From: Antechinus flavipes
Lineage: Eukaryota
Direction: 5' to 3'
Length of the DNA: 64,000 bases
Assembly (NCBI RefSeq): GCF_016432865.1
Contig: NC_067401.1
Coordinates: forward strand, 277,016,001 to 277,080,000
Each line of letters starts with the position of its first letter. Positions within the stretch are counted from its first letter, which is position 1. Below the pieces are notes generated by a model that was not told the DNA's origin, ran no database searches, and saw only the letters and a list, made by a program, of their open reading frames with translations. The position numbers were made by a program, and so were the translations under genes. This document shows positions 48,868 to 53,509 of the stretch, one piece after another.

Positions 48868-48935
48868 CTTTGTATTTTTTTTTTTTTTTTGCATCTCTAG
48901 TATTTAGCATGGTGCAGGGCATATAATAGATTCTT

Positions 48936-49300
48936 TTTTTTAGAATTTCAAGTTTAGTGTTTGACTGGGGTTTTTAATTTGTTCCTTTTCTAGCATTTTT
49001 AGTTGCAAACCCAATTCATTGACCTTCTCTTTCTCTATTTTATACAAATAGGCCTCTAGAGATATGAAATTTCCCCTTATTACCACTTTGGCTGCATCCC
49101 ATACATTTTGGTATGATGTCTCATTATTATCGTTTTCTTGGGTGAAGTTATTAATTATGTCTATGATTTGCTGTTTCACCCAATCATTCTTTAGTATGAG
49201 ATTATTTAGTTTCCAATTATTTTTTGGTCTACTTCCCCCTGGTTTTTTGTTGAATGTAATTTTCATTGCATCGTGGTCTGAAAAGGATGCATTTACTATT
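48936..49300 (-). mobile_element. Internal L1 ORF2 fragment (end of EN domain/linker) with its own 16-bp TSD
   Basis: ORF 48940-49266 (NNWKLNNLILKNDWVKQQII...ETSYQNVWDAAKVVIRG) is L1 ORF2; flanks catataatagattctt (48920-48935) and catatgatagattctt (49301-49316). Confidence 0.9.
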
Positions 49301-51290: not shown

Positions 51291-52280
51291 TCAGAATATG
51301 AAAAGGTTTGTGAAAGAACTTGGAATCAGAAAGAACTGAGGTAGAATTACTGCACCTAGACATTTGCTAAACTATGTGAATCTGTGCAAGTCATTTAGAG
51401 TCTTTCAGCATTTTATGTATGAGTAATTTAGAATATTAAAATGTTTGAAAACTTGTTGAAAACAAAAAAAAACACCAGAAGATTCTGGTAATTATTAGAT
51501 TTTTTAAAATCTATTTTCTTCTTTCATGAGTTAGATAAATGATCTAGAAGCAAATGGATGTCTGATTTTTTTTTTTTTTAAAGTCTTCTTTCACAAACAA
51601 AATTTAAAAAACAACAACCAGTCTTTCAAGTTGTGTCACACAGTCAGTACAAATTCAGTGAACTCTTTTATCCTTTAAGATAATCACAGAATCTTACAGC
51701 ATTTATCTTAGGGATTATTTTTTCCAACCTCCTCATTTAAGAACCATGGGAAAATGGAGCGGCTTACTCATAGTCACAGGAAGTGACGAGTAAATGCTAG
51801 CAAGGGGCAGAGATAACATAAATTTAATTCTCCTGACTTGAAGCTTTTATACATGCCTCACTTTTTTCTGTATTTTTAGTATTGTAAATGTTTCCTGGTA
51901 TTATTAATTATAATCCAGAAGCTTTGCAAAGTTTTTCTCGTGATTGAAACATAAAAAAAGAATTGTTATGTCCAGTACAGTTTGTATTGGGTATGTTTGA
52001 TATCATTCTAATTCTCAGATCATGATCAATTGATCATAGAAGTTGGAATCCATATACCACATAGAAAGGCAGTTAGGTGATGCAAAGAGTAGAGTACCAA
52101 GCTTAGAGTTGGGAAGTCTTATCTTCCTGAGTTCAAATCTAGACTCAGACACTTATTAACTGTGCGACCCAGGGCAAGTCATTTAAACCTGTTTGCCCCA
52201 GTTTCTTCTTCTATAAAAAGGCAAGCCACTCTAGTATTTTTGCTAAGAAAACCCCAAATGGGTAACAAAGAGTCAGAAAT

Positions 52281-52777
52281 TGTTAGAATTCTTACAAGGT
52301 GCTAAGTCAGTTATTTAATTTAGCATGGTACTTAACAGTTCTCTAGTTTACTAATGCACTTAATATTTATTAGAGTTCTACAAGATTCACATCTTTAAGA
52401 GAATATATATATAAGCTAGGAGCTTCAACCAGGATTAAGTCCAGGAGATTCATAAGTCAGAGAGAATAAGCCCACTCTCAGAGGCAGAAACAGATTCATT
52501 CCATTTTCCACCTTTTTGCTGGCTGGAGGCTGAAGCTGGAGAGGCAAAGAACTAGTGGCAAGAGCTCTCAGAACCAAGGAGAGAGATAGGCCTCTAAGAA
52601 AGCTAACCAGCCCAAGGAAGGAGACAATTCTTTGAAAAAGAAAATAAAGGATTTGGACTTTAACTCCTGGCTGCATTTGAGGTGATTGTTACACAGAACT
52701 GAAACTAAGGCTGCCTCCAGAAGCCCCTCAAGAAACCTACTCTCAGAGAACAATATATTGTAGAGAAGAATATTACA
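52281..52777 (+). mobile_element. ERV LTR (497 bp), probably class II/betaretrovirus-like given the Lys PBS
   Basis: TGT...ACA termini; TATA (tatataa 52408-52414); AATAAA 52643-52648; immediately followed by a PBS. Confidence 0.85.
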
Positions 52778-52780
52778 TTT

Positions 52781-52798
52781 TGGCGCCTGAACAGGGAC
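52781..52798 (+). other. Retroviral primer-binding site complementary to tRNA-Lys(UUU)
   Basis: TGGCGCCTGAACAGGGAC is 17/18 identical to the canonical tRNA-Lys3 PBS TGGCGCCCGAACAGGGAC and lies 3 nt after the LTR terminal CA. Confidence 0.92.
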
Positions 52799-53509
52799 AC
52801 AGAGATGAAACACCTGAACAACAATAACAACAACAAAGCACTAAGAGCAAGTGTTTGCATTCAGAAATTCACTGCCTTTTACCTATCCTTTAACTTACTA
52901 ATTGGTTTCACTGACTTCACTCTTTCCTTTCTTCAAAGCAACCTCCACAAAGCTTTTGTGTTGACAATCTTAAAACACGGTTATGATCTTCTTGTGTCAA
53001 AAGAGACAATAAATGAGATATAAAATGTTTTGCAAAACTTAAACGTATTATATATAGCTAGTTATTTTTATGTTTTTGTGATTCTACTATTCAAAACTTC
53101 AGTAACTCCCATTTATTGTGGATGTTCAGTTGTGTCCAACTCTTCTTGACCCTACTTGGAATTTTCTTGGCAAGGATATTTGCCATTTCCTTCTCAGGTC
53201 ATTTTATAGATGAGAAACTGAGATAAACAAGGTAAAGCCATTTGCCCAGGGCTCTCTCTCTCTTCTTTCTTCTATGCTTCCCTTTTTTCTACCTTCCCTC
53301 CAAAAGCCTCAGTACAGTTTCAAGCTTCAGTAGCCCACAGTTGCACTAAGGCCTCTGGGATGCTCTGTATTTTGTGTTTAAAAAAGGTAAGCTTCTTGAA
53401 AGCAGACCTTTATTATTTTTGTCTTTATAGTCATAGTACCCAACTCAGCTTAATGCTGAATACATGATAAATAGAAGATGGACAGATTATTATTGAGATG
53501 AAGTGAAAA

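Follow-up and report, generated by a model that had tools for sequence, protein, structure and literature searches.

Canonical solo LTRs are products of recombination between the two LTRs of a provirus. Errors at the strong-stop end are known from Ty1, and for single-round retroviral vectors Pulsinelli and Temin reportedly found, in 1991, deletions whose 5' junction lay at the PBS.

In plus-strand synthesis 18 nt of the tRNA primer are copied up to a stop at m1A58, and read-through of this stop as well as transfer to a wrong site are possible (PMC8599865, PMC12657518). For HIV-1 proviruses, 7-54 nt of tRNA-Lys3 copied past the PBS have been described, with A instead of T at position 58 in 5/44 (PMC12657518). 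Human tRNA-Lys3 carries the modifications m1A58, m5Um54 and ms2t6A37 (PMC8599865), which we assume to be the same in the host studied here. Within the literature surveyed, which comprised main texts with older subscription papers mostly outside its scope, we found no report of ERV fossils that consist of an LTR and a PBS only or that carry tRNA read-through.

The insert described in this work lies in a 64,000-nucleotide stretch of the Antechinus flavipes genome (the window). It is likely a dead, non-replicating germ-line fossil of a known reverse-transcription error, and within a class of products left by failed second-strand transfer it is most likely the shortest.

Structure of the Insert

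An earlier note on this DNA, made from the letters alone, had described an LTR, a PBS and an immediate return to the interrupted SINE, and all three are present (Table 1). The insert comprises one LTR without a PPT and without internal sequence, and its PBS is the sole PBS-like motif of the window. Within the LTR, a TATA-like run is found at 52404 and an AATAAA at 52643. Repeat depth goes up from ~52073, near the start of the SINE, and the anchor pattern of the SINE tail has 368 exact matches in the genome.

Table 1. Features of the insert and of the interrupted SINE (positions within the window).
Feature	Position	Strand	Remarks
Interrupted host SINE, 5' part	52075-52280	+	start approximate
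Candidate TSD, left copy	52274-52280	+	agaaat (52275-52280, 6 bp) or cagaaat (7 bp)
LTR	52281-52777	+	TGTTAG...ATTACA (TG...CA, complete), from the window sequence; assigned to a class II (ERV-K/beta-like) family
ttt spacer, LTR to PBS	52778-52780	+	matches normal 5' LTRs of the family
18-nt PBS	52781-52798	+	complements host tRNA-Lys(UUU) plus CCA; one CpG-type change
ac	52799-52800	+	between PBS and agagat; A makes a CA end at 52799
Candidate TSD, right copy	52800-52806	+	agagat (52801-52806) or cagagat; one mismatch; otherwise diverged SINE tail
SINE tail, continued	52807-52837	+	(AAC)n-type; from the window sequence

A canonical solo LTR has its TSD straight after the terminal CA and no PBS; at this locus the spacer, the PBS and the two following bases lie in between. 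The element itself ends no more than 1-3 nt past the PBS, and whichever TSD is accepted, or none, host sequence is back 1-8 nt past the end of the PBS. For the A at 52799 four sources are conceivable, namely misreading of m1A58, addition without a template, the first position of the leader and the last position of U5. An A stands opposite position 58 in 10/35 of the tRNA read-through copies described below, and an A after the PBS also occurs in locus L117. The base is not diagnostic, because the leader often starts with A: in many family copies it begins AGACAC or ACA. The LTR itself ends ACA.

Elsewhere in the window, a segment of 275 bp (48934-49207), presumably a young L1 fragment, is 98% identical to an insertion inside the related copy L191.

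The LTR Family

The window LTR is a high-copy repeat with 6437 first-look candidates; among the 40 which were scored, the best others are 80-90% identical to it. In the set of the 29 next-best copies, a TSD of 6 bp borders the LTR in 20 cases, a count which joins two tallies, automatic LTR ends having been miscalled for nine copies (L005, L007, L008, L014, L015, L020, L018, L019, and L021); three of the 29 are 5' LTRs that lead on to a PBS and a leader. Proviral copies of the family are mostly ~3.4-3.7 kb long with a TG...CA LTR at both ends, have a tRNA-Lys PBS and a 6-bp TSD, and in L191 all three ORF pieces score above the cut-off for Gag_p24 (PF00607) and Gag_p24_C (PF19317). Because of this proviral size class and the p24-type Gag pieces of related copies, we assign the family by its sequence features to the class II (beta-like, ERV-K type) ERVs. 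L191 was also considered as an autonomous long element and rejected as such, since its surplus length includes opposite-strand ORFs, which we take to be L1-like; it was kept as a natural reference only.

A sample of the young family is composed of 14 solos, four 3' LTRs, three clear 5' LTRs, six LTRs with a PBS embedded in U5 and two others. The six embedded-PBS LTRs may themselves be solos. Solos outnumber proviruses in this sample by ~4:1.

Candidate TSD and Empty Site

Three TSDs can be read at the locus: one of 6 bp that follows "ac", one of 7 bp (6/7 identical) if the element ends with the CA at 52799, and one of 5 bp that follows "aca". A CA end requires the 7- or 5-bp version, and the 6-bp version leaves the element without one. 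By chance, a match of at least 5/6 within four offsets occurs at 5.4% of random window positions and a match of at least 6/7 at 1.4%. No TSD-like match was found at the same cut in 30 intact SINE tails, and no 7-bp TSD in 29 window-family LTRs.

The nine measurable tails of these 30 SINEs were used to judge the empty site. If the host sequence resumes at 52802-52804, so that a TSD is short or lacking, the score against them is 7.3-8.1; the 6-bp TSD scores 6.2 and makes the SINE tail 4-5 bp too short. Contigs from four runs of related organisms (X1, X3, X7, and X19) cover the left flank and end in the SINE, none of them spanning the insert. From the sequence it is plausible that the TSD is real. 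The 6-bp duplication with one mismatch that the earlier note had proposed is present in the letters, but it is not secure, given chance levels of 1-5% and the at least equally good fit of a reading with no or a short TSD. That the TSD may be coincidental, that the family offers no 7-bp TSD and that the 6-bp version lacks a CA end all count against a direct integration of the insert.

Primer Binding Sites of the Family

The commonest PBS of the family is a 19-nt hybrid of the Lys3 and Lys1,2 types with 149 matches (e.g., L078; L078-L107 and L148-L187), the first 70 of which by position were examined. The Lys3-type PBS has 47 matches with CpG degeneracy only and 208 with at most two mismatches; the 87 Lys3 copies examined include all 47 of the former, 38 further copies with one mismatch and two with two mismatches (100 of the 208 matches were listed). 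Among the 20 nearest PBS-bearing relatives of the window LTR, 16 have the hybrid or the Lys1,2 type. L116 combines a Lys3 PBS behind its first LTR with a hybrid PBS behind its second.

The tRNA-Lys(UUU) genes of the host match the Lys3 type; ten full-length genes are identical to L243, and one more has 97% identity. An isodecoder of tRNA-Lys(UUU), once considered as the source of the C-to-T difference in the window's PBS, is unnecessary and was rejected, since the ten identical genes carry C at this place and the same CpG-type change is widespread among the PBSs of the family.

As the usual PBS of the family is the hybrid, a perfect Lys3 PBS can, on sequence grounds, label the plus strand that was copied from the tRNA. 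The PBS of the window was likely copied from a tRNA-Lys(UUU) primer at the end of plus-strand strong-stop DNA; possibly it belongs to a native Lys3 sublineage instead. On a speculative note, a hybrid PBS may accept either primer, or may lower silencing by tRNA fragments.

In L118, L119, and L035 the Lys3 PBS is followed by partial PBS repeats, as if a tRNA copy had paired with the genomic PBS in a shifted register.

Loss of the Leader behind Lys3-Type PBSs

The searches for the enrichment test were anchored on the PBS and blind to the sequence downstream of it. Among copies with hybrid-like LTRs, the leader is lost at the PBS or at most 6 nt after it in 15/51 Lys3 copies vs. 0/63 hybrid copies (Fisher p=1.5e-6, a value which includes the duplicated pairs L045/L122 and L134/L135 as well as L073, with its break 6 nt past the PBS). 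Copies with other or unassigned LTR types were left out of the test, namely 36 Lys3 copies, 24 of them leaderless, and seven hybrid copies, of which one (L084) fails the leader rule and by eye has a diverged leader.

The misjoined Lys3 ends lead to very different targets. Some continue in gag (L121, L073) or in the 3' internal region (L054), and the three-LTR element L116 has its junction to the PPT/U3 border; junctions to these three kinds of target show microhomology of 2-3 nt. Inversions start at the PPT in L125 and L144, a piece of U3 stands inverted in L130 (perfect TSD), and in L060 (perfect TSD) and L133 U5 has been copied again after the Lys3 PBS. The permuted L108 (L244:7155-8901) consists of an inverted U5 end, a pol piece, the PPT, an LTR, the Lys3 PBS, a short jump and an inverted U3 end; both att ends are present, and its 6-bp TSD is perfect. 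Host DNA directly past the PBS was found in L045/L122 (no TSD), in L127 (after TTGA), in L117 and in the window. L117, with its PBS, AAA and then a perfect 6-bp TSD, is the sole other copy with the LTR-PBS-TSD form of the window. L045 and L122 had also been considered as a family with captured sequence; they share the LTR and ~1.25 kb of flank (~90%) before they diverge, and are treated as one duplicated event.

These data bear on a history in which a normal provirus, its Lys3 PBS being native or reverted, was inserted and later lost everything from the first leader bases to the end of the 3' LTR via ACA/AGA microhomology; the earlier note had already raised a loss between the PBS and the 3' LTR end as an alternative. 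The leader start AGACAC or ACA together with the LTR end ACA can explain the junction letters, and 36 of the 51 Lys3 copies are indeed normal proviruses with a normal leader. However, such a deletion should ignore the type of PBS, and the leader is lost behind the Lys3 type only; the misjoining therefore belongs to reverse transcription, and later deletion is disfavored as the source of leader loss. In addition, every microhomology parse at the window locus needs an extra indel on top of the substitution, and a deletion offers no source for the tRNA read-through relatives. We regard this history as improbable for the window insert.

The earlier suggestion of an aberrant reverse-transcription product with a tRNA-derived end holds in so far as the PBS was likely copied from the tRNA, an origin strongly indicated at the level of the family; the direct integration which it implied is one of two histories that have to be weighed.

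tRNA Read-through Copies

A pattern of PBS plus tRNA continuation has 40 matches, five of which are tRNA genes. The other 35 hold the complement of CCA and are therefore derived from mature tRNA. They extend 30-45 nt into tRNA-Lys, eight of them 39 nt and four 40 nt (to about position 38), and the base opposite position 58 is T in 20, A in 10, C in four and G in one, the mismatch limit of the pattern favoring T. Ends of this kind cannot arise by genomic deletion. L236 and L238 (2/35) are CCA-bearing 3' fragments of tRNA-Lys without LTR context and possibly took a different retroposition route.

The start of the LTR could be located for 27 read-through copies. Eleven of them contain no internal sequence and close with a U5 re-copy (L209, L212, L214, L217, L224, L229) or an inverted U3 end (L207, L222, L233, L237, L239), followed by a 6-bp TSD; L209 and L229 come from a lineage that replicated with such an LTR (L213, L215), so nine of these closures look independent. 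In L211, L221, and L230 the tRNA copy jumps to internal sequence, and a normal 3' LTR, 98.8-100% identical, stands at the end. Overall, the end of the tRNA-copied strand is where the junctions gather, and those products that lack internal sequence have integrase-type ends and TSDs.

Five of the closures with an inverted U3 end (L207, L222, L233, L237, L239) share with L130 the order LTR, tRNA copy and inverted U3 end (17-480 bp), with 6-bp TSDs and two U3 att ends. In L293 a 3' LTR is joined straight to an inverted U3 end without a PBS, and in L269 a Lys1,2 PBS is joined to the PPT/U3 border, which results in tandem LTRs. An ARAGORN call of a tRNA-Lys(ctt) at L222:1080-1154 falls on an LTR end with two successive tRNA-derived pieces and probably mistakes captured primer copies for a gene.

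In the second history a full provirus, whose primer was removed too late, would have kept the tRNA copy at its right (U5) end upon integration; LTR-LTR recombination would then have left a solo with the PBS within the TSD. In repair-deficient cells, HIV-1 and MLV are known to form 3' junctions which keep 2-15 nt of PBS and have a short TSD or none (PMC2797772). The same Lys3 enrichment is predicted by this route. A PPT precedes the LTR in L108 and L127, with a Lys3 PBS behind it, and also in L293, where the right end is aberrant, so that right-end routes do occur. Yet neither L108 nor L127 has a direct 5' LTR within ~8 kb, and none of the examined copies (87 Lys3, 35 read-through) combines a direct 5' LTR with a tRNA-bearing 3' LTR. 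No PPT was found upstream of the LTR in any of the 27 read-through copies (L235 is borderline), and in all six insertions with a downstream direct LTR (L054, L073, L116, L211, L221, L230) the tRNA copy lies behind the first LTR. The absence of proviruses with a tRNA-bearing 3' LTR is itself weak evidence, because solos, which dominate these families, outnumber proviruses by about 4:1 in the young sample; finding 0/9 would have a probability of 0.1-0.15 (roughly, by hand). Both histories end in the same final sequence. We consider the one through a right-end provirus unlikely, though it is the foremost competitor of direct integration.

Lineages with Embedded tRNA Sequence

Some products became part of replicating LTRs. 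In an older family a Lys3 PBS and an 18-nt U5 re-copy are fixed in the LTR end at 13 loci (L034, L036, L040, L052, L056, L058, L059, L062, L064, L066, L067, L076, L138); several of its solos have a TSD after the second end, and the proviral L056 and L066 carry tandem PBSs, Lys3 and then Lys1,2-like. In L044, whose LTR is of the older family, tRNA read-through of 21 nt follows the PBS; next comes a U5 re-copy, and the TSD matches at 5/6. In the young family, LTR lineages with 39 nt of tRNA complement or with a Lys3 PBS in U5 have replicated as well (L209, L213, L215, L229, L225; L275, L278, L286, L287, L288, L291).

On this basis the LTR plus PBS could be regarded as a replicating mini-element, and the earlier note had proposed a distinct mobilization route in case many copies shared the structure. 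Lineages with PBS or tRNA sequence in U5 did replicate (the 13 older-family loci; L209/L213/L215/L229; six younger-family copies), but they did so in normal proviral form, having a leader and a further PBS (L056, L066, L215, L225). The form found in the window has one exact match of the U5 end plus PBS and one structural look-alike, L117, with another LTR start and other extra bases; among the Lys3 copies, 2/51 have LTR, PBS and TSD in this arrangement, each unique amid heterogeneous misjoinings at the PBS end. Many copies with the same end were thus not obtained, and the proposed route finds no backing. The insert has no PPT and no internal sequence, and the set of two LTRs, PBS, PPT and several alike copies which defines a TRIM is missing. 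A replicating mini-element is therefore a very improbable explanation.

Origin of the Insert

We favor, with a probability of roughly 0.5, that the insert is an LTR-only product of failed plus-strand transfer which was integrated directly and never contained internal sequence. An origin from a tRNA-copied strand, for which direct integration and the right-end provirus count together, is considerably more certain and can be called probable. Aberrant second-strand transfer is recognized by a junction where the PBS or tRNA copy has its 3' end, and the insert has such a junction.

According to the proposed mechanism, plus-strand synthesis would copy 18 nt of the tRNA-Lys(UUU) primer and halt at m1A58. 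The tRNA copy would anneal poorly to the hybrid PBS of the minus strand, and its 3' end, extended by one A to give CA, would land on the last bases of U5 or serve directly as an end. Integrase would join the normal U3 end, and the right end would be joined either by integrase at CA, with a 7-bp TSD, or by host repair, with a 6-bp TSD plus 2 nt or no TSD.

Taken alone, the locus is a dead insert; it is of value because it opens up a fossil record, across the genome, of errors in plus-strand transfer. As a natural label, the hybrid PBS tells which strand a provirus inherited, and the read-through copies preserve stall sites of reverse transcriptase on the modified primer together with the misread bases. 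The fixation of some products as LTR subfamilies provides a route for the lengthening of LTRs and the gain of tRNA sequence. Direct integration of LTR-only products, if it occurs, would mean that recombination is slightly overestimated from the number of solo LTRs. Furthermore, the cost of mismatched PBSs, which have been proposed to help ERVs against silencing by tRNA fragments, becomes testable from genomes.

As a tentative generalization, which we hold slightly less firmly than the favored reading of the locus itself, a measurable share of solo LTRs may never have been proviruses. Mis-transferred strong-stop DNA could have given rise to short double-stranded LTR-only molecules, ending in CA opposite m1A58, in a U5 re-copy or in an inverted U3, which integrase inserted in the germ line. 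Their fossils would record ancient stops at tRNA modifications (A58, ~54, 37-38) as well as misincorporation by reverse transcriptase, and such molecules would repeatedly have seeded LTR lineages with a primer fragment in U5.

Comparison with Known Systems

With the vector deletions and the errors of Ty1 the insert would share a strand-transfer error at the end of plus-strand strong-stop DNA; those are laboratory products. Canonical solos of the window's own LTR family have a CA end with the 6-bp TSD directly after it, whereas in the window ttt, the PBS and 1-2 nt lie inside the candidate duplication.

One complete LTR, the lack of internal genes and a candidate TSD are shared with canonical solo LTRs (PMC11334065), and the main text of that paper mentions neither PBS nor tRNA. 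Helenus TRIMs are alike in that tRNA-derived sequence lies inside the LTRs of non-autonomous elements (PMC10886601); there, however, the sequence is a tRNA-like promoter and does not complement the PBS of the element, whereas here it is the reverse complement of the 3' part of the primer. The ETn, MusD and IAP elements of the mouse resemble the window's family in their dominant mismatched PBS, in switching between Lys3 and Lys1,2, and in perfect PBSs that were proposed to represent the tRNA-copied strand (PMC7472051); in section 4.3 of that paper, the perfect PBSs are not tied to misjoined ends or LTR-only inserts.

The PBS remnants which Sakurai et al. (2009; PMC2797772) described for HIV-1 and MLV likewise show an unprocessed U5 end with PBS bases on host DNA, a normal 5' junction and an altered TSD length. 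They comprise a partial PBS of 2-15 nt in full proviruses from Mre11-deficient cells, in contrast to the full 18-nt PBS behind a lone LTR in the window.

Aberrant (deferred) second-strand transfer in HIV-1 is alike in a junction at the PBS or at copied tRNA-Lys3 and in a downstream transfer (Hardy et al., 2025; PMC12657518). Unlike the HIV-1 case, the class to which the window LTR probably belongs is fixed in the germ line as ERVs, its targets include U5 and inverted U3 without internal sequence, and the hybrid genomic PBS labels the tRNA-copied strand even without read-through. Judged by these comparisons, the insert of the window behaves like a product of the aberrant second-strand transfer known from HIV-1 rather than like a canonical solo LTR, a TRIM or a member of a replicating family.
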